Shown here: piece after piece, positions 18,728 to 59,727 of the stretch | How positions within the stretch are numbered: the first letter of the stretch is position 1 | How the letters are laid out: each line of letters begins with the position of its first letter | IMG/VR virus record: IMGVR_UViG_3300032327_000792 | DNA length: 64,000 nt | Direction: 5' to 3' (one strand) | Origin: a virus | Taxonomy: Duplodnaviria > Caudoviricetes | Notes under the pieces: model-generated | Databases searched by the model: none | What the model was told of the DNA's origin: nothing | The model's input: only the letters and a program-made list of their open reading frames with translations | Made by a program: the position numbers and the translations under genes

Positions 18728-19546
18728 TCAATGTAGGTCAATGTATTTGATTTCAAATTCTTGTGCTCGTTGCTCATATTGAATGTAGCCTCTTGGATTG
18801 CACACCACTCTAGTACCGCCAATGCCATAGTCAAATGGATCATGCATGTGTCCATGTACCCATAGTTGAATCTGTGGATTGTCCAAGATGAACTGATCCA
18901 TATTGGAGTAAAAGTTGCCATTCATCAAGCGATCACTGGCATACTTTTCATGTACACTCAACGGGCTTGGTGCATGATGTGTGATCACAACAATTTTGTT
19001 ATCTGTACGACCACTCTCTTTATAATTCTCCATACATACTTGCAAATAGTCACGCATCTGTGTGTGATCACTTAGAGCATGCTTGGGCAAAAATTTCCAA
19101 CTCACTCGATCATTGGTATTCTTCACTGCTTGGTAGTCATTCATGGCACGTTCAGCATTGTACATGGTGAATGAGTCCTGGTCATTGAAGTCTGTCCACA
19201 AGGTTCCACCAATGAACTCGTAGCCATTGATTGTCACTGTGGATTTGTCCAACAACGTGATGTTGGCAATCTCATGGTCATCACAGAATGCGTGAAAACG
19301 TTCTGCACCTTTGGCAAAGTCACCGGAGTAATGTTCGTGGTTGCCCATCACATACAAGCTCTGCGGAAAGTCACGACTCACACGCAGAAAAAAATTTCTT
19401 GCACGCTCACCACGTTCACTTTGTTTGTCCAAATCTTTGAGCATGACAATATCGCCAGCCAGAATCAAGAGATCAGCATTGTCTTCATTTTTAAGAACAA
19501 TATCTCCAAATTCTACATGTAAATCACTGGCTAGGGCTAGTTTCAT
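18728..19546 (-). CDS. Calcineurin-like metallophosphoesterase
   Basis: SDLH, LAGDI, GNHEHY, GTLWTDF, THHAP, HGHMH. Confidence 0.88.
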   Translation of the reverse strand: MKLALASDLHVEFGDIVLKNEDNADLLILAGDIVMLKDLDKQSERGERARNFFLRVSRDFPQSLYVMGNHEHYSGDFAKGAERFHAFCDDHEIANITLLDKSTVTINGYEFIGGTLWTDFNDQDSFTMYNAERAMNDYQAVKNTNDRVSWKFLPKHALSDHTQMRDYLQVCMENYKESGRTDNKIVVITHHAPSPLSVHEKYASDRLMNGNFYSNMDQFILDNPQIQLWVHGHMHDPFDYGIGGTRVVCNPRGYIQYEQRAQEFEIKYIDLH

Positions 19547-36705: not shown

Positions 36706-36990
36706 TTTAATCAAGGCCACTGTGTCCACTGCCACTAGGAAGGCATAGTTGGCCAACCCCCCTAGACTGTTGCGAGTCCATAATGCCCAGGCAAATATGG
36801 CACTGCTGGCCACAGTCAAACTCAAGAACCAAATAAACGGTACGTTGGGTACTGTCCACATAAACATGATGTTGGCTGCTACGCTCATAGTCCAGCCTAG
36901 GATTTCCACAACACACCGAACAGGATGTTCGCGATAGTCTCGAGCTATCCACCCAAAGATATCGTTAAGCACGTTGCTTCCACTGATCAT
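36691..36990 (-). CDS. Small membrane protein
   Basis: Three hydrophobic segments. Confidence 0.6.
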   Translation of the reverse strand: MISGSNVLNDIFGWIARDYREHPVRCVVEILGWTMSVAANIMFMWTVPNVPFIWFLSLTVASSAIFAWALWTRNSLGGLANYAFLVAVDTVALIKLLFF

Positions 36991-37996
36991 ACAACATTTG
37001 AGATGCTAAATTTTTACCCTTAGCTTCGCATTGAATATCAAAGTCCGGGGAGAAAGTCAATGCCCAATCATTCACAGCAGAGTTCCACATAAAGTCAGAA
37101 TGTGCTCGGATTTTTTGTTTTTTCAAGCCTTGAGCAAGAAGTGATTCAAGATCTGGCCTAGTTCGGGTACAATGATCAACAAGAACATCTTCGCGACTAA
37201 CACTGTAATGCATAGCAGGGCGCACACCACGCCAACTGTCAATAACCCTCCGAACACGATCATCCTGCGGATCGATATATTCGCCCGTGTGGACCCAGTG
37301 ATGATGTATATCCAATACAAGAGCGACATGCTCGCCCACAGCAAGAGTAGTGTCCAGACCATTTGTTATTTCGTCATTTTCTATAGTTATGAGATTGCGA
37401 GCCTCGGGTGACAGTTTTTGTAATGTACGCAAGAACTTTTCGGCACCGCCTTTGCCACTCAGGTGCACATTGATCTTGAATCCATGATCATGCCATGATG
37501 CACCATAGCCCATCCAACGTGCCATATCTGCGTGATATTCAAATTCTGCAATACTGCGTTCCACAATACCGTCATTGGCCGAAGCCAACACACAAAATTG
37601 TCCCGGATGAAAGCTCAGTCTAACGTCCAGTCTGCGTGCAGTTTCACCTATGGGTGCAAAAATCTTCTCTAGATGATCCTGTATTGCTCTATCTTGCCAC
37701 CAATCAATCCAGCTGGCTTCGGTATAACCTTGTAGCATTTCACTACCCAGTCGAACCATTCTACGCTCAGGCGGCAATGTGGCCACACGCTCAATCATTT
37801 TGACAGCCGCTGTGGCATTGTGGTTCATAATGTCCCACTGACGTTGTTCAGCCTCTAGTGGATGTTCGCGTAACCAACGCATGGTAGTTGAACGCCCGTT
37901 AAGGTCTCGATCCACGGCATTGACTTTCATACCACCGCATTCAGAAGGGTCATTGAGCCATTTGCAACAGAAGCCAAATCGATTAAGTGTAGTCAT
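36965..37996 (-). CDS. uvsE: UV-damage endonuclease
   Basis: RLSFHPGQFCVLAS, INVHLSG, ITIEND, LDIHHH, RAHSD, CEAKGKNLA. Confidence 0.92.
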   Translation of the reverse strand: MTTLNRFGFCCKWLNDPSECGGMKVNAVDRDLNGRSTTMRWLREHPLEAEQRQWDIMNHNATAAVKMIERVATLPPERRMVRLGSEMLQGYTEASWIDWWQDRAIQDHLEKIFAPIGETARRLDVRLSFHPGQFCVLASANDGIVERSIAEFEYHADMARWMGYGASWHDHGFKINVHLSGKGGAEKFLRTLQKLSPEARNLITIENDEITNGLDTTLAVGEHVALVLDIHHHWVHTGEYIDPQDDRVRRVIDSWRGVRPAMHYSVSREDVLVDHCTRTRPDLESLLAQGLKKQKIRAHSDFMWNSAVNDWALTFSPDFDIQCEAKGKNLASQMLYDQWKQRA

Positions 37997-40610: not shown

Positions 40611-41047
40611 TCAACCACTTGCCCTGCTTGCCAGTCAACTATCGGACGATCCATGACTTCAAGATAATGACCAGATTTCCAATCCTCCAACAATACCAGA
40701 GCACGACGTATGAGATGCTCCTGGCCAGCAAGATCAAATAGCTCAATGTAACGTCGATATAGGTCGCTGTGAACTGGCATTACTGTTCCAGTATCCATAC
40801 GATAATAAGAAACGCCAATGTCTTTCCATCCTAGATCAGCATAGTATTCAACAAAATGATGATTCCAACTAGGTAGTCTGTGGCGCATGTCTGCCATGGC
40901 TCCGCATATCTTGGATTGATATCCTTGGCTGATCCACTGGTTGACACTAACAGGATCATTAAAAGGCTCATAGATATAATTGAGCCCTTTGAACTCATCA
41001 TCCCAAAATACTTCTAGGTTATATTCACTGATTGCGTGTGTTACCAT
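40529..41047 (-). CDS. Cupin/2OG-Fe(II)-oxygenase-like protein
   Basis: PVHSD (HxD) and distal H (PHMAAN). Confidence 0.6.
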   Translation of the reverse strand: MVTHAISEYNLEVFWDDEFKGLNYIYEPFNDPVSVNQWISQGYQSKICGAMADMRHRLPSWNHHFVEYYADLGWKDIGVSYYRMDTGTVMPVHSDLYRRYIELFDLAGQEHLIRRALVLLEDWKSGHYLEVMDRPIVDWQAGQVVEWIHDTPHMAANIGLQPRYTLQITGHL

Positions 41048-42266
41048 AGTGTACTACGTTGATGTTGGGCATGTCCACGGGCAACTGGCGCCACGGATCC
41101 ACAATAACTGAACCTGATTTGATTTCGCAATACGGCTTGGTGGCTTCCTGTTCGCCTGTGTATTCGTAAGTTATTCGGCGATTGTGTGCCCATAAAAATA
41201 CAGCTGGCAAGTCCACACTTGCGACCACATTGGTTGCATCATCTGCCAACGGATCAACATAGGTCACACGATGACCGGCCTGTTCAACATAGTGCCCAAC
41301 CAAAGTTGAATAGCTTCCAATACAATAAGGAACATCTGGCTTGTATGCTTTGCCGTGAATCACAATTGGTAAGTTGTTTTTTTGTGCTTGTACCACCAAG
41401 AACAATGCCAAGTTTTTGGCCTGGATTTCTCTGGCATGCATGATTGTGTCAAATAAATCATATCCAACTTCGTATTCCTGTGCTAACCAACGTAAGGCAA
41501 TATTATCACGCGGATGACAGGCACCTGCATCGCCCATGCCTGCTGTCATGTACTTGGGTCCCATGATACGCATAGTTGATCTTGCTAGAGCATTGGTTAC
41601 AACATCAACGTTGATGTTGCCAATTTTAAGTGCAAAGTCTTGAATCATGTTGGCCAGTCCAACTTTGGCACTAATAAATGTGTTGTAAAAAATTTTGATT
41701 GCTTCGCATTCGTCCCACGTACCAATTTCGTAACGTGGATTGTTTTGCATGATAGTCTTGTAGATATCAATCAACTCACCAGCCAATGTATTTGGGTTAC
41801 CGTCCTCTGTGCCAATCATGATCATTTCTGGATTGACCATGTCCCATTTGACTGATCCCATGGCAATCAAATATGGATTGTACAGGAACTGATGTTTTTT
41901 ATCCAACAAGGTAATAAAGTGTCGACGTGTTGTTCCCGGCAATACAGTAGAAATCAGTACGACTTTTTTGGGAGTGGTAGCGTATTGGTTGACTTTTTGC
42001 AGTGCATCTTTGACTGCATCATGTCCAAAATCTTTGGGTGCCATGTGACTTGATGGAACCGACCCATCATAGCCTTCTTCGTGCGGTGTTGGTACCGCAA
42101 TAAAAATCCATTCGCTTTCGTTGACAGTTTCTTCAATGCTGCAAACTTTTACCTGGTCACTGGTTCTTGGGTAAATATCAAAGCCGCGTACAGTGTGTTT
42201 TTCTGCCATTACTTCAGCACAGTCCAGGCCAAGTTTTCCTAAACCAATAAATCCTATATTTTTCAT
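41025..42266 (-). CDS. UDP-glucose/GDP-mannose dehydrogenase family
   Basis: GFIGLGKLG, IAVPTP, STVLPGT, IKIFYNTF, GAC.P.D, GKAYKP. Confidence 0.88.
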   Translation of the reverse strand: MKNIGFIGLGKLGLDCAEVMAEKHTVRGFDIYPRTSDQVKVCSIEETVNESEWIFIAVPTPHEEGYDGSVPSSHMAPKDFGHDAVKDALQKVNQYATTPKKVVLISTVLPGTTRRHFITLLDKKHQFLYNPYLIAMGSVKWDMVNPEMIMIGTEDGNPNTLAGELIDIYKTIMQNNPRYEIGTWDECEAIKIFYNTFISAKVGLANMIQDFALKIGNINVDVVTNALARSTMRIMGPKYMTAGMGDAGACHPRDNIALRWLAQEYEVGYDLFDTIMHAREIQAKNLALFLVVQAQKNNLPIVIHGKAYKPDVPYCIGSYSTLVGHYVEQAGHRVTYVDPLADDATNVVASVDLPAVFLWAHNRRITYEYTGEQEATKPYCEIKSGSVIVDPWRQLPVDMPNINVVHYGNTRNQ

Positions 42267-42269
42267 ATT

Positions 42270-43541
42270 ATGAGTGTCCCTTTAGATCGTTTATATCACT
42301 ACATTGAAAGCATCGCCCAAGAAGTCTACGGCGACGTATTAATTTATCGCTTTTATCCTCATGGGTCAAAAAAAATAGAAGATTTAACATGCCCCAAAAA
42401 AAAGCACACACCTTATCATGGTGCATACTGCCCTCAGTTGATATGCTACGATCAGGAACCGTTAAATTATGATCTATACAAACATACTCCTGTTCGATTA
42501 GATAAAAAATTTTATTCGTGTGATCCTAGCGACTTGCCAAAACGAAATCTTAGAGTTAAAGTTGGAAATATCTACGATAAATGCTTGTTGTTGCATAGTG
42601 AACTAAACAGTAACGAAGTTAATCGTTATCAACAAGATCAATTTGTGCCTGTGTACTACTGGAGTCACGCTATTATATCAAGAGACTGGTTTAGATATGC
42701 TGTACATGTTGACTTTAAAAAAGATATCAACAAAACTTTTTTAATTTATAATCGTGCATGGACCGGAACTAGAGAATATAGATTAAAATTTATTGAAATG
42801 CTGGGTGAGAACAATTTAGTCAATCATTGCCAAAGCAATTTTAATCCATCCGACGGCGAGAGCTATTATAAAACATATAAATTTGCCAACCCGGTTTGGA
42901 AACCCAACTCCGACTTAGAGCAATATTTTGATCCAACAACAGCGTCGAGTGCCAGCAGTGCAGATTTTGATATTGATGATTACAATAGCACAGAGATTGA
43001 AGTTGTACTTGAAACATTGTTTGATGATCAGCGTCAACAGTTAACTGAAAAGATACTGCGACCAATTGCTTGTAAACAGCCGTTTATTTTGGCATCTACG
43101 GCTGGCAGTTTGACATATTTACGTACATATGGATTTAAAACATTTGAAGAAATCTGGGACGAAAGCTATGATTCCATTGATGATCCAATCGAACGTATGC
43201 AAAGAATTATTAAAACAATGCGTGATATTGCATCATGGTCACCAGAATACAAAAAAACCCAGATGCAAAAACTTAGAGAAATTGTTGAACATAATCATCA
43301 ATATTTTTTTAGTGATAAATTTTTTCAGAGTGTAATCTTGGAACTTAAAAAAAATCTATCCACGGCATTTGACCACATAGAAAATACCACAGTTGGAAAA
43401 CACTACCTTGACGTTTCTATGAAGAATATACCCGGGATACGCGAACCCAGAAAAACTTCTAGTTACAATAGACAGTTTAAACACGACGTACTTAAAAAAT
43501 TAAAAGAGTACAGAAAAAGAAATCGTAAAGGGGTTAAATAA
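42270..43541 (+). CDS. AT-rich glycosyltransferase-like hypothetical protein
   Basis: LTEKILRPI...PF...GFKTF..WDESYD shared with 29633..30541. Confidence 0.55.
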   Translation: MSVPLDRLYHYIESIAQEVYGDVLIYRFYPHGSKKIEDLTCPKKKHTPYHGAYCPQLICYDQEPLNYDLYKHTPVRLDKKFYSCDPSDLPKRNLRVKVGNIYDKCLLLHSELNSNEVNRYQQDQFVPVYYWSHAIISRDWFRYAVHVDFKKDINKTFLIYNRAWTGTREYRLKFIEMLGENNLVNHCQSNFNPSDGESYYKTYKFANPVWKPNSDLEQYFDPTTASSASSADFDIDDYNSTEIEVVLETLFDDQRQQLTEKILRPIACKQPFILASTAGSLTYLRTYGFKTFEEIWDESYDSIDDPIERMQRIIKTMRDIASWSPEYKKTQMQKLREIVEHNHQYFFSDKFFQSVILELKKNLSTAFDHIENTTVGKHYLDVSMKNIPGIREPRKTSSYNRQFKHDVLKKLKEYRKRNRKGVK

Positions 43542-45596
43542 TTGATGTTCAAAAAAGTTCTACTTAGCTCCTGGACTGCTCTATTAACCCTTGTGTTGAT
43601 AGTGGGCATACGTGTAGCAGATCCCTCATTTGTCGAAAGCGTAAGACTACGGTATTTTGACACGCTGATTACTGCCAAAGCTCCAACTGAGAATAACATC
43701 TATACTGTCAACATAGATGAAGCCGCGCTAGACAAATATGGCCAGTGGCCTTTACCGAGAGATCAATATGCTAAAATCATTCAAGATTTGTATCAGCGTG
43801 GTGCTGGTGTTGTGGTTCTTAATGTGCTTATGGCTGAGTCTGATCGCACCGGTGGAGACGTTGTACTAGCCAACGCACTAAAACAATACCCTGTGGTGCT
43901 TCCTAGTGTGCCCGGTGACAAAACAAAGAACAATCCACGACAACCCGGGTCAGCTGTTATTGGTGCCGAGTACACTGATCTAATTGTACAGTATCCGGGA
44001 TTAATTGCCAACGTTCGAGCTCTGGAAACCGGTGCAGTCGGAGTTGGTATTGTAAACACCTTGCCCGAAGTAGATGGTGTTAATCGTAGACTACCCATGG
44101 TAGTTGCTGTCAACGGACGAGTATATCCCAGCATGGCCATGGAGACTCTGCGTGTAGCCGCAGGTGATTCAACGTTTCAAGTCAAACTATCAGAAATTGG
44201 CGTAGAAAAGATGCGCATTCCGGCCGTTGGAGCTATCACCACAGACAACCTAGGACGTGTATGGGTTGATCTAAGTCAGCAATCAAAGTCGGCGAGTTTA
44301 ATGAACTTACCCAAAGACTTTGGTGGGGCTATTGTCATAGTCGGAGCAACGGCTGCTGGTATCGCCAACCCTGTTCCTACTGCCAAAGGTGCTGTATGGC
44401 CGCAGGAGTTTCAGGCCATGGCCATTGGCACAATGATCAATGGTGTGGTCATTGCCAGACCAGCATGGGCCAACGGTGCTGAACTTTTGACAATGTTGGC
44501 TGTTGGTGTTGTACTATTATTTTTAACAAGGTGGACTTATGTTGGTATTGCGTCGGTTATTGGTTTCATTGCTGTATTTGCGTATGGCAGTTACTTTATG
44601 TTTAGCAGTAGTCTTTGGCTATTTGACATTACCGGGCCAATCGCAGGAGTTGTCCTTGTTGCGCTCCATGCTTACGGAGTCAAGTTTGTTTCAGAGTTCT
44701 TACAAAAGCAACAGATAAAGAAACAGTTTGGCACATACCTATCGCCAGCTATGGTAGAAAGGTTACAGCGGAATCCAGAGCTACTACAACTAGGTGGTGA
44801 GTCAAGAGAACTTTCGATTATGTTCACTGACGTTCGTGGATTTACCACAATCTCAGAACACTATGGCAAAGATGTACAAGGCTTGACCCGAATCATGAAT
44901 CGCTACATGACAGCCATGACAGCAAAAATTATAGAGAACCAAGGTACCTTAGACAAGTATATTGGTGACGCACAGATGGCTTTTTGGAACGCACCCCTGG
45001 ATGATGCTGACCATGCCAAGAATGCTGTGCGTACAGGTTTACAAATGATGGGAAGTTTAGATGCATTCAATCAAGAAATTACAGCAGAAGGCATACCAGC
45101 TTTTGGTATGGGTCTTGGGATTAATACTGATACCGTTGTGGTCGGGAACATGGGCAGTGATCAGCGGTTTGACTATACTTGTCTCGGCGATGGCGTCAAC
45201 TTGGCAGCTCGTCTGGAAGGGCAAAGCAAGCCGTACGGTGTCAAAATCGTACTGGGCCCGAAGACGGCGCAACTGGTAAAAGACGAATATTTTGTGCTTG
45301 AGCTAGATTGTATAGCAGTCAAAGGCAAAAAAGAAGGTGTAACAATTTACACAGTGCTGGGTCGTAACAACGAGATCAATCTAGACAAAGGTGACGTGCA
45401 AATGCACGAAGCTATGTTGGTATTGTATCGTCAACAACGGTTTGACCAAGCCATTAAGTTCTGCCAAGACCTCAAGGGCAGATTTGCAGGTGAGATGGAC
45501 CAATACTACGACGCTTGGATAGAGCGTTGTGAGGAGATGAAACATGTTGAATTACCAACAGATTGGGACTCAGTTTACAGAGCAGTTTCAAAATAA
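43542..45596 (+). CDS. CHASE2-domain adenylate/guanylate cyclase
   Basis: TM-CHASE2-3TM; class III motifs FTDVRGFTT, DKYIGDAQMAFW, GINT, DYTCLGDGVNLAARLE, VKGK. Confidence 0.93.
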   Translation: MMFKKVLLSSWTALLTLVLIVGIRVADPSFVESVRLRYFDTLITAKAPTENNIYTVNIDEAALDKYGQWPLPRDQYAKIIQDLYQRGAGVVVLNVLMAESDRTGGDVVLANALKQYPVVLPSVPGDKTKNNPRQPGSAVIGAEYTDLIVQYPGLIANVRALETGAVGVGIVNTLPEVDGVNRRLPMVVAVNGRVYPSMAMETLRVAAGDSTFQVKLSEIGVEKMRIPAVGAITTDNLGRVWVDLSQQSKSASLMNLPKDFGGAIVIVGATAAGIANPVPTAKGAVWPQEFQAMAIGTMINGVVIARPAWANGAELLTMLAVGVVLLFLTRWTYVGIASVIGFIAVFAYGSYFMFSSSLWLFDITGPIAGVVLVALHAYGVKFVSEFLQKQQIKKQFGTYLSPAMVERLQRNPELLQLGGESRELSIMFTDVRGFTTISEHYGKDVQGLTRIMNRYMTAMTAKIIENQGTLDKYIGDAQMAFWNAPLDDADHAKNAVRTGLQMMGSLDAFNQEITAEGIPAFGMGLGINTDTVVVGNMGSDQRFDYTCLGDGVNLAARLEGQSKPYGVKIVLGPKTAQLVKDEYFVLELDCIAVKGKKEGVTIYTVLGRNNEINLDKGDVQMHEAMLVLYRQQRFDQAIKFCQDLKGRFAGEMDQYYDAWIERCEEMKHVELPTDWDSVYRAVSK

Positions 45597-45750: not shown

Positions 45751-45768
45751 AAGTAACACAACTGTAAC
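45751..45768 (+). promoter_or_regulatory. Pho-box-like direct repeat
   Basis: AAGTAAC-ACAA-CTGTAAC, 11-bp period. Confidence 0.4.
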
Positions 45769-45785
45769 ATGTTAAGTTATAAATA

Positions 45786-45858
45786 ATTCTAATCGAGTGC
45801 AATGATCGAGCACAGTTGGAACTCGTAACCAACACTAAAGAGCCTAGGCTCTTTTTTT
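45786..45858 (+). ncRNA. Candidate small RNA
   Basis: Follows TATAAATA (45778-45785), two small hairpins, ends in a terminator. Confidence 0.45.
45837..45858 (+). terminator. Intrinsic terminator
   Basis: AAAGAGCCTAGGCTCTTTTTTT. Confidence 0.75.
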
Positions 45859-45935
45859 AATGACTTGTAATATTGTGTGTAATATTTTGTCCACAACAAT
45901 TTGTTAAATAACTACACTACAAGGAGGAGTAAGCC

Positions 45936-46094
45936 ATGAAACAAGAAAAACTTGTTCAAAAGCTGTATCGGGCCTGCTTCGACCACGACGCCGAGAAGAT
46001 TGCAAAACTTCGCCAAGAAGAATTTGCCAAAATCTTGAAACGCAAGGCCGAAGGCAAGTCTTTTACTGCTGAGTGGACTGTTGTACAGATATAA
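45936..46094 (+). CDS. Small protein (52 aa, not in ORF track)
   Basis: AAGGAGG RBS, TAAATA upstream; [21 protein letters not shown]... Confidence 0.6.
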
Positions 46095-47094
46095 GACTGC
46101 GTTGAAATATGTGCCAACAGGCTTCCCAGGTCCATCGTTGAGAAGCTTGTTGAACTCTGTTGCGATCTAACAACAAGCAGTGTTCCACAGCCGTGATTAG
46201 ATTTTCATCCATCCATCCATTGATACCATTTTCCACAACATCTATGGGTCCTTGCACAGGAAATGCTGCCACTGGAGTGCCTTGTGCCATGGCTTCAATC
46301 ATTACCAAGCCAAAAGTATCAGCTCTGCTGGGAAACACAAACACATCGGCGTTGTAGTATTGATTCACTAGATCTTGTCCTTGCTTGTAACCCAGGAACA
46401 ATGCATTGGGTAACAATCTCTGTGCTTCTTCCCTATAGGGGCCATCACCAACTATGATTAGAAAATAACGATTCTGTATTTCGACCAGTTGATCTAGTCC
46501 TTTTTCGGGACTGACGCGACCCACACACAACACAATGGGCAAGTGTTTGTGGTCGACTCGTAGGATATTGGGTTCAATAGATCTATCTACTCCGCGAGCC
46601 CACACAGTGAGATTTTTAAATCCGTGTGAGTGTAAATCTTTGCGTATGGTTTCAGTTGTGACCAACACTCTGTGACTGTTTTTGTGAAACCAACGCAGAT
46701 AAGCATAGGTCCAGCGAGCAGGAACTCCATACATCACAGATAAGAACTTAGGAAAGTCAGTGTGATAGCTAGTGTTATAACTATAACCATTACGCTCACA
46801 CCACCAGCGAGCAAAAAGGCCCACAGGTCCTTCTGTAGCGATGTGTATAAAGTCCGGCTGTATCTCCTTAATTTTTTTTGAGATACCCCAGGGCCACGAG
46901 AGCTTAACTTCAGGATAGCCAGGGCAATCACAATGAGGGAACTGCCCGGGATCAAGATAAACAACGTCATAGCCGTTGCCAACAGCATGACTTTCCAAGT
47001 TTTTGAAAGTTGTGACCACGCCATTGATCTGCTCCTGTGTGTTGTCCGTGACAATTAATATTTTAGGCATTGCGATATTGTTTGTTAGATTCAA
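46063..47094 (-). CDS. GT4 glycosyltransferase, Agt/SqdX-like glycolipid synthase
   Basis: [53 protein letters not shown]. Confidence 0.88.
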
Positions 47095-47848
47095 TAGCAG
47101 TAGACAACATAGGCATGTGTACCTGTTGACCTTGGGCTAGATAGTTCAATGCTGCGGTATCCTTGGGGAAGCATGCTCCGCCATAGCCATGTTCTCCGTC
47201 AGGCCCGGGTACAGCCCAGTGAGTATTGCCCAAGCGGCTATCTGTTTTGGCAATACTGGACAGTTTGTCCCAATCCAGTTCCAATGCATGAGCCAATACA
47301 TACAACTCATTGTTCACAATAACCTTCATGGCCAGCATACAATTGGCCATGTACTTGAAGTAACTGGCTTCTTCGATGCTACAGTATTCTATTTTTACTC
47401 GATCAAAGTTCACAGCACTGGACATCAATATGTCAGTGACTTCATCACGTAGTTTCTTTCGACATCCTACCACAATCTTGTGTGGGTTTACATAGTCAAA
47501 CTTGGCACGAGCCTGTGTCAAAAACTCTGGTACATGTGCTAGATTTAGATCTAGCTCTTTTTCCAACTGTCTATAAACTGTAGGACTTGCTGTGCTTTTG
47601 GCAACAACTATTCCGTTGTACCCAGATAGGCCTGTCAACACCTGTGTTAATGTTGAGGTATCACACTCGCCTGAGTCAGACTGAGGAGTTGGTACACAAA
47701 CAAATATAGCACGGCATTTGTCACGAAGTTTGTCTATTGAGACCGATTCTGATCCTAGCTTGGGATCATTTATCAAAATCTTGTCGTCAGGATAACTGGC
47801 AGCCACTGCCGAGCCAACATATCCATTGCCTATGATACCTATTTTCAT
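47063..47848 (-). CDS. UDP-glucose 6-dehydrogenase-like (short form)
   Basis: GIIGNGYVG, CVPTP, KST, PEFL, KYMAN..LA.K, GYGGACFPKD; lacks the usual C-terminal domain. Confidence 0.85.
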   Translation of the reverse strand: MKIGIIGNGYVGSAVAASYPDDKILINDPKLGSESVSIDKLRDKCRAIFVCVPTPQSDSGECDTSTLTQVLTGLSGYNGIVVAKSTASPTVYRQLEKELDLNLAHVPEFLTQARAKFDYVNPHKIVVGCRKKLRDEVTDILMSSAVNFDRVKIEYCSIEEASYFKYMANCMLAMKVIVNNELYVLAHALELDWDKLSSIAKTDSRLGNTHWAVPGPDGEHGYGGACFPKDTAALNYLAQGQQVHMPMLSTAIESNKQYRNA

Positions 47849-48606
47849 TTTTCGCTCACAATCTCATTCCAGTATACAATTTCCCAACGACCATCCCAGT
47901 GTTCAACCAATGCTGTACAACTTTCTACCCAGTCGCCGTCGTTCATGTACACAATACCATCAATGTCTCGTATTTCAGCTGTGTGTATGTGTCCACAGAT
48001 GATGCCATCATAGCCTTTGGTCTTGCAATAGTCAGCCAACAATGTTTCAAAGTTTAAGACATACGAAACAGCCTGTTTGGTATTTTGCTTGATCCAGCGA
48101 CTCATGGACCAGTATCTAAGACCCAATCGAGAACGCACAAAGGACCATGCATCGTTCAAACGAATAATGATGTCGTACAACCAATCTCCAATGTGCATCA
48201 GCACTCGCCCTGAACTGATGTGCATCAATGTGTCAAACATATCTCCATGTACCACTAGATACCGACGACCATCCAATCCTGTGTAATCACATCGGTTGAC
48301 AACTTCAACATTGCCCACTGCAGGAATAAAGTTTAGCCATTTACGTAGTACTTCATCGTGATTACCCACAATGTATTTGATTGTAGCACCTCGTTTGGCT
48401 GCTGTCAATATTTTACGGACAACGTTTGAATGTTCTTGGGGCCAAAACCATTTCTTTTGTAGACGCCAACCGTCAATGATATCGCCTACCAGTAATATTG
48501 TTTCGGCTGTGTTGTGTTTTAAAAAGTTACAAAGCAAATCTGCCTTGCATCCTCGGCTGCCCAGATGTATGTCGCTGATACTGATAGTTCTATATTTTGG
48601 TTGCAT
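47845..48606 (-). CDS. PlcP-like metallophosphoesterase (phospholipase C; often annotated UDP-2,3-diacylglucosamine hydrolase)
   Basis: SDIHLG, GDIIDGW, WPQEH, GNHD, HGD, YWS.S, GHIH, NDGDWVESCTA. Confidence 0.82.
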   Translation of the reverse strand: MQPKYRTISISDIHLGSRGCKADLLCNFLKHNTAETILLVGDIIDGWRLQKKWFWPQEHSNVVRKILTAAKRGATIKYIVGNHDEVLRKWLNFIPAVGNVEVVNRCDYTGLDGRRYLVVHGDMFDTLMHISSGRVLMHIGDWLYDIIIRLNDAWSFVRSRLGLRYWSMSRWIKQNTKQAVSYVLNFETLLADYCKTKGYDGIICGHIHTAEIRDIDGIVYMNDGDWVESCTALVEHWDGRWEIVYWNEIVSEK

Positions 48607-48637
48607 ACACTATTTACAGTTTCTGCAACATTGCCCT

Positions 48638-48655
48638 ATTACATTTGTGTTACAT
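48638..48655 (-). promoter_or_regulatory. Pho-box-like direct repeat upstream of the plcP-like gene
   Basis: ATGTAAC-ACAA-ATGTAAT, 11-bp period, about 30 bp upstream of the ATG. Confidence 0.5.
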
Positions 48656-50178: not shown

Positions 50179-51276
50179 TTACTTTTGTACAATAGTAATC
50201 ACTGTTGATCCGCCACGATTGATTTGCTGAGTTACTGGTGCGCTATCTTGCGAAATATTGAGAGTAACATCGGCTTCCTTGTTGATTGTGACCTGTGCAG
50301 TGTGCATAGTTTGTCTGCGTAAAATCAGTTTTAATTCGTCTTCATTGAAACCGTAGGTCAATCCAGATGCCGCATTGTATCCTGGTAACATGGTTTTTTC
50401 AGTCAATAGATTTTCTTGACTTTGTGCCAACTGTCGATTAGAAAGATCCAGCATATTCATCAACATATCTCCGTCGAGGTAGTTAAGGTCTAGATCGCGG
50501 AATGCTGCTAACGGATCTTCATCCAATGCGTTGTATTTCAAGAAGTCTTGATCCAAAAAGTTTATCAATGGATTGTCTCTGGACAGTGCATTAACAGCTT
50601 CTTCTATTTGCGGAGGTGGTTGAACAATCAGCATGTTGTTGATGTTGGCTTGATCCAACACAATGGTCACAGGAATGCTAGGCATGGCTGACAGACTGGC
50701 AACCATGGTGGCTTGATATGCTTGGTCCAGGGTCACTTCGCCTGCGTCATTTGACACAGTAATGGCACCCGTGACACATCCGCGGTTATCGCAACTGGGC
50801 AACAGAATCACAAGACTGCGGCCTAGTTCGTCCACGGTCATTGAAAAGTCTGTGCCACGTACAGCCACAGTGGCAGTGGGAGTTTTCACATCAACATTCT
50901 GTGGGTTGGTCTTGGCAATCTGTCCTGAGGCATACCGAGCTGTGCCTAACACAACTTTCATGGCAATCTTGCCTGATCCTTTTTTGGGATCATACACAAA
51001 GTCATCAATTATCAGTTTTGATTGTTCTGTGATATTGACTGTGGTGTTGTCTTCGAATGTGAGTTTGGCTTTGGCTCGGGCAGTGACAATGGTGTCATTC
51101 ATTTCCACAGGAGAATTCACTGAGGATGGCAGTGATTTTTTAGCACGTACAATTTCTGTTGGACCAGTTTGCTCTGTAATTTTACCTACAGAAGCCAAAC
51201 TAGTCTGACTGAACAATGCTGACAGTATTGCTGTTGCCAGTAGTATTGACTGTGACAGTTTTTGCGGTAAGACCAC
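50179..51276 (-). CDS. FecR-domain periplasmic protein
   Basis: D.I.T...AKLTFEDNTTV.ITEQS, VKTPTATVAVRGTDF, V.VSNDAGEV.L. Confidence 0.88.
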   Translation of the reverse strand: MVLPQKLSQSILLATAILSALFSQTSLASVGKITEQTGPTEIVRAKKSLPSSVNSPVEMNDTIVTARAKAKLTFEDNTTVNITEQSKLIIDDFVYDPKKGSGKIAMKVVLGTARYASGQIAKTNPQNVDVKTPTATVAVRGTDFSMTVDELGRSLVILLPSCDNRGCVTGAITVSNDAGEVTLDQAYQATMVASLSAMPSIPVTIVLDQANINNMLIVQPPPQIEEAVNALSRDNPLINFLDQDFLKYNALDEDPLAAFRDLDLNYLDGDMLMNMLDLSNRQLAQSQENLLTEKTMLPGYNAASGLTYGFNEDELKLILRRQTMHTAQVTINKEADVTLNISQDSAPVTQQINRGGSTVITIVQK

Positions 51277-56175: not shown

Positions 56176-57807
<1,632 letters not shown>

Positions 57808-58303: not shown

Positions 58304-58528
58304 TTAGTACAATTTTTTTGGCAAACTTTGTTTTGCTAGTTCTTTACGATGACGGTTCTTTGCGGCTGCTTTTTTCTTTTTGCGGGCAGTAGTGGGTTTT
58401 TCATAGGTCTCACGTTCGCGAAGATCCTGCAATAGACCTGATTCCATTACCTTTTTCTTGAATTTGCGTAGAGCTTGTTCAACTTTGTCGTCTTTGACCA
58501 GTACTGAATTTCCGTATATGGGTTTCAC
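58304..58528 (-). CDS. rpsU: Ribosomal protein bS21
   Basis: [44 protein letters not shown]. Confidence 0.92.
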
Positions 58529-59727
58529 TTATTTTCCTGTGCGAGTGTGGCAGGAATATTTACCTGATCTTTGTTGATAACTACCTTGATAATGTTTTGC
58601 TTGCGGTACTGCGACAGATCAAACATATGCGGCAACAACACACGCTCTAGCTCACTGTGCAGTCCTCGAGCACCTGTTTTTGTGCTGATTGTACGTTCTG
58701 CTATGAGATCCAAACTTTCTGGATCAAATTCTAATTCTACACCATCTTGATCAAATAACCATTTGTATTGTTCTACAAAGTTGTGTTTTACCCCGGTCAA
58801 TATGTTGATCAATTGTTGTTTGGTCAGTTGTTCCAATGATACTGCAACCGGAAAACGTCCTACAAATTCTGGAATTAGTCCAAACCGCACTAGATCATCT
58901 GCAGTATGTTCAACGTGATCTATATTGGTTGCGACCTCTGCACCAAATCCAATACTGGTTCCTTTGACTCGATTTTTCACAATGTTTTCCAGACCCACAA
59001 ATGCTCCACCTGCCACAAACAAGATACGACTGGTGTCAATTTCCACAGTGTCAGATCCTGAGGATTTTTTGTTGCCTTGTGTGGGTATTTTACATTTAGT
59101 ACCTTCTACCAATTTAAGCAATGCCTGTTGCACTCCTTCGCCTGATACGTCTCTGGCCACTGTGGCATTTTCACTTTTGCGACTGATCTTGTCAATTTCA
59201 TCAACAAATATAATGCCACGCTGAGTACGTTCTATGTCATAGTTGGCAGCCGCATACAATCTAGAGATCAATGTTTCAACATCGTCTCCCACATAACCGG
59301 CTTCGGTCAAACAGGTAGCATCTGCAATCACAAAAGGTACGTCAAGATAACGTGCCACAGTACGAGCCAACAGAGTTTTTCCTGTGCCCGTTGGTCCAAT
59401 TATTAAGATGTTGGATTTTTGTATTTCAATTGAGGGATCTGTGTTGGCAATGCGTTTGTAGTGATTGGCAATGGCCACACTCAGTACACGCTTGGCATTG
59501 CTTTGACCAATCACATACTGATCAAGATATTGGTAAATTTCCCTAGGATCAAGATCAACGGAAGAGATTTTTTTGTTTGTTTTTTTGATCGAAGAATCTT
59601 TGAGCAAACCACTGCACAGTTCCACACACTCATTGCAAATTGAAACTTTGTGACTCACAATCAATTTGCCAACTTGATCTTTGTGTTTGTTACAAAAACT
59701 ACAATGATTGATAGAGTTGTCCGTCAT
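58525..59727 (-). CDS. clpX: Clp protease ATP-binding subunit ClpX
   Basis: CSFC zinc finger, [42 protein letters not shown]. Confidence 0.97.

Follow-up and report, generated by a model that had tools for sequence, protein, structure and literature searches.

Within a 64,000-nt stretch of the virus record IMGVR_UViG_3300032327_000792 (the window, that is, the whole of the DNA analyzed), we identified what is probably a phage-borne copy of the operon (PlcP-Agt) by which proteobacteria renovate membrane lipids, under the control of the host's phosphate-starvation (Pho) response. As judged from the sequence, bacterial-type genes of a large T4-like phage probably remove the phosphate head group from host membrane lipids and replace it with a sugar. 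Phage production is frequently phosphorus-limited, and large phages have a high phosphorus demand; a ∼350-kb genome contains ∼7x10^5 phosphate groups, and a bacterial cell holds millions of phospholipid molecules. To our knowledge, the phage Pho-regulon genes described so far (pstS, phoA) only bring in external phosphate. If the reading is true, the phage PlcP-Agt pair mines the host's own membrane yet keeps that membrane sealed, and membrane lipids join the host resources reprogrammed by phages. The reading of phosphorus-stress lipid biomarkers (glycolipid to phospholipid ratios) in lakes and oceans would also be affected.

Gene organization

Three co-oriented genes spanning 48606-46063 on the minus strand were located downstream of the direct repeat ATGTAAC-ACAA-ATGTAAT and were annotated as follows.

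47845..48606, minus strand: plcP, PlcP-family metallophosphoesterase of 253 aa, predicted phospholipase C yielding diacylglycerol (Pfam Metallophos, E 2e-14; GNHD motif)
47063..47848, minus strand: short two-domain UGDH-family dehydrogenase of 261 aa (Pfam N-terminal and central domains)
46063..47070, minus strand: agt, Agt/GTcp-type GT4 of 335 aa from ATG 47070, predicted diacylglycerol glucosyl/glucuronosyl-transferase (Pfam Glycos_transf_1 and Glyco_transf_4)

The genes are translationally coupled. plcP and the dehydrogenase gene overlap in ATGA at 47845-47848, and the dehydrogenase gene and agt overlap in ATGCCTAA at 47063-47070, with the agt start 8 nt before the dehydrogenase stop. agt is therefore placed in the coupled operon of plcP, one gene further downstream. 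The agt open reading frame as listed covers 46063-47094; the true start is likely to be ATG 47070, which is the start called in a close relative. The trio of genes is kept in close relatives (L173-175) with an identical box. The overlapping, co-oriented genes and the repeat ∼30 bp upstream of them were all found where the preliminary description had placed them. Directly upstream of the operon lies a gene for a PagP-like outer-membrane barrel.

Identification of PlcP

By model score, motif and phylogeny, the product of the first gene is PlcP and not LpxH, as had been proposed from its GNHD motif. The two enzymes belong to the common calcineurin-like metallophosphoesterase superfamily and have a similar length and an insertion between the metal motifs. 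Phage plcP homologues owe their LpxH-like database name to this similarity, and the best NCBIfam match of the window protein by name was likewise LpxH. Its score on the LpxH model NF003743 was, however, 36 bits against a cut-off of 134 bits. On the same model, true LpxH of five genomes scored 233-321 bits and the PlcP paralogues 35-58 bits. BLASTP with the plcP product matched no LpxH of E. coli, Pseudomonas or Burkholderia; identity to Burkholderia cepacia-complex orthologues of characterised PlcP was ∼51%. The calcineurin-like motif set (DxH, GD, GNHD, H, GHxH) is complete, and its metal-binding motifs, SDIHLG, VGDIIDGW, VGNHDE, VVHGD and CGHIHT, do not vary among 15 viral homologues. GNHD was read in 162 of 162 PlcP-like proteins and GNRD in all 6 LpxH.

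A tree was anchored with Burkholderia cepacia-complex orthologues of the characterised BCAL2364. The plcP product clustered with the Burkholderia cepacia-complex PlcP, the viral proteins forming a largely viral clade, and LpxH of the same genomes was split off with a support of 100 on the longest branch of the tree. LpxH identity was rejected on the sub-cut-off score, the GNHD motif and this split. A PDB sequence search with PlcP returned no solved relative. Both plcP and agt (BCAL2364/BCAL2365) are needed in B. cenocepacia for MGDG/GADG synthesis at low phosphate (PMC13691135).

Identification of Agt

The product of the third gene, previously described as an Agt-like GT4, is a member of the plcP-linked Agt family with the diagnostic motifs present, an assignment made from identity, motifs and clustering. 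It is 37-42% identical over the full length to the GT4 whose gene immediately follows plcP in 55 of 80 bacterial loci, Burkholderia included, and ∼40% identical to Burkholderia Agt orthologues (orthologues of BCAL2365). The GTcp/Agt clade is defined by the motifs GRVAxEKN and FPSxTDTFG and by a His + Asp catalytic dyad (PMC8231724). The window protein contains YHTxF, GRVxxEK and FPSxxDTFG, the second GT motif being read as FPSRADTFG; it deviates from the published consensus at two positions, with S for A in motif 1 and A for T in motif 2. E. coli WaaG and WaaB carry Glu in place of the Asp of FPSRADTFG. A tree was built with plcP-linked GT4s as the reference, including Burkholderia orthologues of BCAL2365. 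The agt product was placed in a viral clade (support 95) nested in the plcP-linked Agt family. Outgroup GT4s lay on branches of ∼5 changes per site, with WaaG and WaaB far away.

These assignments bear on a reading in which the trio acts on lipopolysaccharide or another glycan, with an LpxH-like pyrophosphatase, a nucleotide-sugar dehydrogenase and a GT4 modifying lipid A, core or O-antigen. We consider this very unlikely. LpxH is the best NCBIfam match by name, and the plcP homologues of Pelagibacter phage Mosig (an isolate) and Synechococcus phage S-SRM01 are labelled UDP-2,3-diacylglucosamine hydrolase (LpxH-like) in GenBank, but the LpxH score is far under the cut-off and equal to that of bacterial PlcP paralogues, the motif is GNHD and not GNRD, LpxH is separated at 100, and the GT4, which has the Agt-specific Asp, sits among plcP-linked Agt proteins, far from the LPS enzymes WaaG and WaaB.

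The short dehydrogenase

The middle gene had been described as Ugd-like, with its product supplying UDP-glucuronate. The relationship to UGDH and the intact catalytic site were recovered. As in Ugd/UGDH (Klebsiella, 3PHL), a Rossmann NAD domain is followed by a central domain with PEFL, Lys, Asn and the GGxCxPKD catalytic cysteine; GxGxxG, KST, PEFL, K165, N169 and GGACFPKD are invariant in 31 homologues. The phage protein is, however, ∼130 residues shorter. It stops after the central domain, lacking the C-terminal UDP-sugar-binding domain (PF03720) and part of the N domain, and its alignment covers residues 110-317 of Klebsiella Ugd. The score against TIGR03026 was 150 bits (cut-off 189.8 bits). 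An AF2 model (pLDDT 84) matched UGDH/GMD structures with TM 0.6-0.75 (query) and 0.35-0.47 (target), and the match of the model spans only ∼two thirds of UGDH. On account of the absent UDP-binding domain, the sub-cut-off score and the partial structural match, the protein was not taken to be a bona fide Ugd. A 413-aa paralogue is encoded at 41025-42266.

The short form is a conserved two-domain relative of UGDH, with more than 120 metagenomic clusters of 258-279 aa at 60-95% identity, but its tie to the lipid pathway is weak. Related phages carry the short Ugd alone or under its own constitutive-type promoter, one relative (L177) has it without plcP or agt, and it was located ≤6 kb from plcP in only 2 of 80 IMG/VR loci. 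Supply of UDP-glucuronate by this gene is thus unproven, given the domain loss, the stand-alone occurrence and the rarity near plcP.

The Pho-box-like repeat and predicted promoter

Two elements were annotated upstream of plcP.

48638..48655, minus strand: Pho-box-like direct repeat ATGTAAC-ACAA-ATGTAAT, ATGTAACACAAATGTAAT, two 7-nt units with an 11-nt period (read in the sequence)
48611..48616, minus strand: TAAATA box, predicted -10 element, separated by 21 nt from the repeat and by 4 nt from the ATG (position conserved in viral loci)

The 3' end of the repeat is 31 nt from the plcP ATG. TGTMAY-N5-TGTMAY has 1 exact site in the window and shuffles gave 0.51, so one copy is not significant by itself and the case for a real element has to come from conservation. 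The box is identical in the close relatives L173-175 although the flanks differ. Among distinct viral plcP upstream regions, 21 of 63 (33%) carry the box, a match at 11 or more of the 12 core positions no farther than 75 nt from the start being required; among control windows (65 nt, drawn at random from the same loci) the share is 0.46%, a 72-fold enrichment before plcP. Box scores over these regions are bimodal, and two thirds of the regions have no clear box within 75 nt. The box also precedes 8 phage PstS-family genes (PF12849) in related contigs. The preliminary description of the repeat as Pho-box-like was upheld by its conservation before plcP in many phage lineages and before phage pstS, which supports the view that it behaves like a Pho box; the 21-nt gap to TAAATA, where 10-11 nt is canonical, did not fit.

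The architecture of box, TAAATA and ATG is fixed in 21 viral loci, with TAAATA 4-8 nt before the plcP ATG and either 11 or 21-22 nt after the box, giving two spacing classes one helical turn apart. Class I relatives and the phage pstS promoters have the 11-nt geometry. The extra 10-11 nt in the gap of the window promoter keep the same helical face, and no third in-phase half-site was visible by eye in the 21-nt gap. In the phage pstS promoters TAAATA follows the box by 10-11 nt and is itself followed by a leader with AAGGAG; two pstS loci have a TATAGT or TATCAT hexamer in its place. TAAATA was rejected as a substitute for a ribosome-binding site, since the AAGGAG of the pstS promoters is separate from it. 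With TAAATA only 4 nt ahead of the plcP ATG, the mRNA is predicted to be leaderless or nearly so, starting at or within 2 nt of the A of ATG 48606.

The repeat might instead be an operator for a phage or other host regulator, or mark a class of phage promoter, with an operon unresponsive to phosphate. Several features agree with this. The halves are TGTAAY and not classical TGTCAY, each matching 4-5 of 7 consensus positions (CTGTCAT) with the period and TGT-A core kept, and the E. coli 18-mer Pho-box consensus gave no match within 3 mismatches. The 21-nt spacing is non-canonical. TAAATA forms the 3' six bases of the T4 late-promoter consensus and also precedes other genes in the window, and two more such elements, described below, stand before a candidate small RNA and a 52-aa ORF for which no connection to phosphate is known. 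We nevertheless judge this reading to be quite improbable. Across 1.6 Mb of viral sequence the element occurs almost exclusively before plcP and pstS, classical CTGTCAT-type boxes take the same place in closely related bacterial plcP genes, the period is 11 nt, and class I promoters keep a PhoB-like distance of 10-11 nt to the -10 element. Neither the window, the viral loci nor five large plcP phage records yielded a PhoB/OmpR-type (winged-helix) regulator. A phage-encoded PhoB was rejected as none was found in the records searched, and the regulator of the operon would be supplied by the host.

Further box-like elements near the 3' end of agt

Two units of similar design were located on the plus strand.

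45752..45861, plus strand: second Pho-box-like promoter and ∼70-nt hairpin-rich transcript with terminator, candidate small RNA (box, TAAATA spacing, fold)
45866..46094, plus strand: third Pho-box-like promoter (period 12 nt), then AAGGAGG and an ORF of 52 aa at 45936-46094 (sequence)

The second box, AGTAAC-ACAAC-TGTAAC at 45752-45768, agrees with the core at 11 of 12 positions, and exactly 11 nt separate it from a downstream TAAATA (TATAAATA at 45778-45785). This unit faces the 3' end of agt. The candidate small RNA has a fold z-score of -2.6 and a terminator at 45837-45854, and the box, promoter and hairpins are conserved in L173/L174. The third repeat, TGTAAT-ATTGTG-TGTAAT at 45866-45883, is followed by TAAATA at 45905-45910. 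Its 52-aa ORF converges on agt and overlaps the last 32 nt of that gene; in L173, which lacks this promoter and ORF, the terminator marks the end of agt. Repeats of this kind followed by TAAATA after 11 or 21 nt number only 3 in the window, all of them in 45752-48654 (shuffles gave 0.1).

One speculative reading, to which we give little weight, is that the phage owns a small Pho regulon with this module as its core. Leaderless plcP mRNAs would come from a hybrid PhoB-box/T4-late-type TAAATA promoter, the small RNA and the convergent 52-aa gene, both running into the 3' end of agt, could tune the operon by antisense or collision, and the dehydrogenase, deprived of its UDP-binding domain, may oxidise the glucose head of glucosyl-diacylglycerol directly to glucuronosyl-diacylglycerol rather than produce UDP-glucuronate. 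We know of no such activity in the UGDH family.

Occurrence in other phages

plcP was found in at least 126 IMG/VR viral contigs. agt is the next gene after it in about 40 of the 80 viral loci examined, as it is in 55 of 80 bacterial loci; this arrangement corresponds to the plcP context that Sebastian et al. call 'type 2' (PMC4796936). The complete module had been described as not known from a phage. No paper describing a phage plcP-agt module was found, and the announcement of the Mosig genome is silent on phosphate and lipid genes, but the module is not unique to this virus and phage metabolic genes of this kind are widespread in viral contigs. As plcP homologues are already present in public phage genomes under the misleading LpxH name, their re-annotation could be immediate. 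In 14 of 81 viral loci pstS lies no more than 6 kb from plcP, and in Mosig the plcP homologue is divergent from pstS; no pstS was found within the window.

Proposed function

The preferred reading is that of a PlcP-Agt operon under host Pho control, in which the enzyme activities, PhoB binding, transcription start and benefit to the phage are predicted. In a phosphorus-starved host, phosphorylated PhoB would bind the two TGTAAY repeats and recruit RNA polymerase to the weak TAAATA -10 element, which probably doubles as a T4-type late promoter. The output would be a leaderless or near-leaderless tricistronic mRNA with the three genes translationally coupled. PlcP, a cytoplasmic metallophosphoesterase of predicted LpxH fold, would convert host glycerophospholipids to diacylglycerol and a phospho-head group. 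The products of S. meliloti PlcP are phospho-head groups and not free phosphate, so further host enzymes would be needed; host phosphatases would release phosphate from the head group for phage DNA. Agt would glycosylate the diacylglycerol with UDP-glucose (perhaps UDP-glucuronate), leaving the membrane intact until lysis. The short dehydrogenase may feed glucuronate chemistry, which is the least certain step.

Bacterial PlcP-Agt operons (S. meliloti SMc00171; SAR11 HTCC7211 plcP and agt PB7211_960; P. aeruginosa; B. cenocepacia BCAL2364-2365-2366) contain the same two families, with plcP upstream of agt and a Pho-box-type repeat upstream, and the predicted chemistry, from phospholipid through diacylglycerol to glycosyl-diacylglycerol, is identical. 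The phage module differs in its location in a T4-like phage, in the largely viral clades of its PlcP and Agt, in the inserted short dehydrogenase and in having no dagK. Its promoter differs in the TGTAAY halves, the TAAATA 4 nt from the ATG and the box one extra helical turn upstream. Likeness was also noted to pstS and phoA of T4-like cyanophages and pelagiphages, which are phage auxiliary genes in the host Pho regulon, and the box and TAAATA precede pstS of related contigs. Those genes import or scavenge external phosphate, whereas the plcP-agt module would mine the cell's own membrane.

The same enzymes could serve envelope remodelling (superinfection exclusion, receptor masking or membrane stability over a long latent period), with Pho control providing only the timing. 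Lipid-remodelled bacteria are reported to differ in phage attachment and grazing susceptibility (PMC9938194, PMC9457565), pelagimyophage literature takes phage GTs and Ugd as surface modification (PMC7029224), and the PagP-like gene adjoins the operon. Such a purpose is unlikely in our judgment, as the box common to plcP and pstS and the adjacency of these genes (Mosig, 14 loci) point to phosphorus economy, and PlcP and Agt are predicted cytoplasmic-face enzymes in which no signal peptide was found.

Phage origin and host

The window is assigned to a phage on the basis of its matches to phage-only PHROG families, its relatives in IMG/VR and metagenomes, and the T4 Gp23 capsid protein encoded in 4 of 5 large plcP contigs. 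The window itself has no tRNA and no virion hallmark gene, and its 1010-aa ORF gave no phage match. DNA similarity to phages was restricted to Mosig plcP. GroEL is 68% identical to its enterobacterial counterpart, and ribosome sites of the strong AAGGAGG type are present, which gives only a hint that the host may be a proteobacterium with classical translation signals.

Organisation of the operon

Three co-oriented, overlapping genes preceded by a direct repeat were read from the ORFs, Pfam domains, overlaps and coordinates, exactly as the preliminary description had them.

47845-48606, minus strand: plcP-like gene (P0001), 253 aa, Pfam Metallophos
47063-47848, minus strand: dehydrogenase gene (P0002), 261 aa, Pfam UDPG_MGDP_dh_N and UDPG_MGDP_dh
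46063-47094 as an ORF, minus strand: agt-like glycosyltransferase gene (P0003), Pfam GT4 domains
48655-48638, minus strand: repeat ATGTAAC-ACAA-ATGTAAT, 3′ end 31 nt from the plcP start codon

The first two genes overlap by ATGA (47845-47848). The dehydrogenase and GT4 genes overlap by ATGCCTAA (47063-47070) and the same start is called in a 95%-identical relative, so ATG 47070 is most likely the GT4 start.

The window probably carries a PlcP-Agt lipid renovation operon, borne by a phage and preceded by a Pho box. In a phosphate-starved infected cell, phospholipid would be converted to glycolipid and phosphorus freed for phage DNA. Homology, synteny and regulation shared with pstS give this predicted lipid swap good support. 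The core of the operon first proposed is retained, as a PlcP-Agt operon with a Pho-box element; its Ugd part lacks one defining feature.

Assignment of plcP and agt

P0001 scored 36 bits with the curated LpxH model NF003743 (cut-off 134). Five beta-/gammaproteobacterial genomes each encoded one true LpxH (233-321 bits) alongside a paralogue (35-58 bits); P0001 was 50-52% identical to these paralogues and gave no BLASTP match to the true LpxH of the five genomes or to E. coli LpxH. Trees of PlcP against LpxH and of Agt against other GT4 enzymes, as suggested in the preliminary description, were both built. In the former (168 sequences) LpxH was split from all other sequences with a support of 100, and P0001 was placed in a mostly viral sub-clade, its group also including Burkholderia cepacia-complex proteins. 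The use of GNHD and GNRD to discriminate PlcP from LpxH held throughout (GNHD in 162/162 PlcP-like sequences, GNRD in 6/6 LpxH). Bit score, BLASTP, tree and motif together ruled out LpxH as the identity of P0001. The orthologous operon of B. cenocepacia comprises plcP (BCAL2364) together with agt (BCAL2365) and dagK, is induced by phosphate depletion and is needed for glucosyl- and glucuronosyl-diacylglycerol synthesis (PMC13691135).

Among the 80 closest bacterial loci, 55, Burkholderia included, have a full-length P0003 homologue (37-42% identity) directly 3′ of plcP, and a homologue occupies this position in ∼40 of 80 viral loci. Sebastian et al., who obtained MGDG and GADG from SAR11 agt in E. 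coli, class this order as the 'type 2' plcP neighbourhood (PMC4796936). Members of the GTcp/Agt clade, as delimited by Wei et al., have a His/Asp dyad together with the motifs GRVAxEKN and FPSxTDTFG and are <25% identical to other GT4 enzymes (PMC8231724). P0003 has both motif regions; at the Asp position, E. coli WaaG and WaaB carry Glu instead. In the GT4 tree the viral Agt proteins formed one clade (support 95) within the bacterial family linked to plcP; WaaG and WaaB were far off on very long branches. By motifs, synteny and tree, gene 3 is assigned as an Agt-type GT4, as proposed. Membership of P0001 in the PlcP family and of P0003 in the Agt family is highly probable on these comparisons.

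The short dehydrogenase

Of the features of UDP-glucose dehydrogenases, P0002 keeps the Rossmann motif, PEFL, the paired Lys and Asn and the cysteine in GGACFPKD, and its AlphaFold model (pLDDT 84) aligns with UGDH/GDP-mannose dehydrogenase structures over ∼2/3 of their length. The earlier label 'Ugd' was borne out for these catalytic motifs but not for the C-terminal UDP-binding domain, which is absent: the protein ends after the central domain and the next gene leaves no room. The short form is not a wreck: >120 metagenomic clusters of 258-279 aa are 60-95% identical to it.

The plcP-ugd-agt order is kept in three close relatives (L173-175). In a 340-kb contig plcP is followed by two other genes, agt and then the short dehydrogenase gene with its own TTGACA-N17-TATAAT promoter; in a 108-kb relative the short gene occurs by itself, without plcP, agt or box. 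It lies ≤6 kb from plcP in only 2/80 IMG/VR loci, and its tie to the lipid genes is loose. Given this and the missing UDP-binding domain, supply of UDP-glucuronate by P0002 is possible but doubtful, and P0002 should be labelled a short UGDH-family dehydrogenase with no assigned substrate.

A second nucleotide-sugar dehydrogenase (41025-42266, minus strand, 413 aa) is 24% identical to P0002, also under the TIGR03026 cut-off, and is conserved near the short gene in relatives L173, L176 and L177. Elsewhere, phage contigs have a RimK-like ATP-grasp ligase (∼295 aa) between plcP and agt in place of the short dehydrogenase, or after plcP where agt is not nearby (L017:6786-7670, L042:2926-3816, L066:6746-7633; also L005-L007), and in L017 a class-3 lipase gene lies directly 5′ of plcP. 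The ligase and lipase genes hint at further head-group chemistry.

The probable Pho-box-type element

The core pattern TGTMAY-N5-TGTMAY occurs once in the window against 0.51 expected, which is not significant alone. A survey of related phages, also suggested previously, bore out conservation of the repeat: among 63 distinct regions upstream of viral plcP, 21 matched ≥11/12 core positions ≤75 nt from the start, with bimodal scores, versus 0.46% of windows drawn at random from these loci. The TGTAAY halves are constant and the spacers variable across lineages with PlcP only ∼55% identical. The exact pattern was found 31 times in 1.6 Mb of viral flanks, about half before plcP and eight before PstS-family genes (PF12849). 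Classical CTGTCAT-type boxes stand at an equal distance before bacterial plcP genes in this clade.

A conserved TAAATA follows the box by 11 nt or 21-22 nt, classes that differ by one helical turn, and lies 4-8 nt 5′ of the plcP ATG. Phage pstS promoters have TAAATA 10-11 nt after the box (TATAGT or TATCAT in two loci), then a separate leader with AAGGAG, an order which excludes TAAATA as a ribosome site and by which it is the predicted -10 element of a PhoB-type promoter. The plcP genes leave no space for a leader between TAAATA and ATG, and their mRNAs are predicted to be leaderless. The window's box is of the 21-nt class and differs from textbook PhoB promoter geometry. No PhoB/OmpR-type regulator was found in the window, the viral flanks or five large plcP-bearing phage records, which implies a host regulator, most simply PhoB. 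The conserved repeat is likely a Pho-box-type element, with PhoB binding predicted.

Only three window sites have a box (≥11/12) followed by TAAATA after 11 or 21 nt, all within 45752-48654, against 0.1 in shuffles. One of them is the operon promoter; the others both face the 3′ end of the operon.

45752-45861, plus strand: second Pho-box-like promoter (box and TAAATA 45752-45785; AGTAAC-ACAAC-TGTAAC 11 nt before TAAATA) and ∼70-nt hairpin-rich unit, candidate small RNA
45866-46094, plus strand: third Pho-box-like promoter (box to TAAATA 45866-45910; TGTAAT repeat, 12-nt period, 21-nt gap) and 52-aa ORF

The second promoter, with TATAAATA, has canonical 11-nt geometry. The candidate small RNA has a terminator at 45837-45854 and a fold z-score of -2.6, and L173/L174 conserve both box and hairpins. 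In the third, TAAATA and AAGGAGG precede the 52-aa ORF, which converges on agt and overlaps its end by 32 nt; this unit is not present in L173.

TAAATA also lies 4-7 nt 5′ of ATG in several other window genes (e.g. positions 43535, 54478, 61271), the CHASE2 cyclase gene among them. Six of 38 window copies are so placed, versus 6.5% of random positions, a sign that this phage may often make leaderless transcripts.

Phage context and neighbouring genes

The window matches phage-only PHROG families at very high scores (e.g. 817 bits) and has an endolysin; no virion gene was found in it. PlcP relatives are encoded by at least 126 IMG/VR contigs, and T4 Gp23 capsid protein is present in 4/5 large plcP contigs (190-264 kb, CheckV 69-100% complete). 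Two isolates have homologues annotated as LpxH-like: Pelagibacter phage Mosig, where the gene (53% identical) is divergent from pstS, and Synechococcus phage S-SRM01 (37%). In agreement with the preliminary description, no account of a phage plcP-agt module was found in literature searches on plcP, phage AMGs and lipid remodelling; a pelagimyophage survey assigns phage GTs and Ugd to LPS modification (PMC7029224).

Other genes of the window were as follows.

18728-19546, minus strand: second, unrelated metallophosphoesterase (PHROG 1649, 2e-51)
36965-37996, minus strand: UvdE UV-damage endonuclease
43542-45596, plus strand: class III adenylate/guanylate cyclase with a fused CHASE2 sensor domain, 684 aa
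48685-49095, minus strand: PagP-like protein, 136 aa, signal peptide, directly 5′ of the operon
56176-57804, minus strand: GroEL, 68% identical to enterobacterial GroEL
58525-59727, minus strand: ClpX/AAA-like ATPase

The CHASE2 cyclase is conserved beside the lipid module or short dehydrogenase in L173, L177 and L017. A gene with a FecR domain occupies 50179-51276, and CsgF and CsgG are adjacent in L177. The 136-aa protein, absent at the corresponding position in L173, belongs to a largely viral family with a predicted fold resembling PagP-type outer-membrane beta-barrels (TM 0.81; PHROG 3600 'PagP'), and would be a second lipid-related gene beside the operon.
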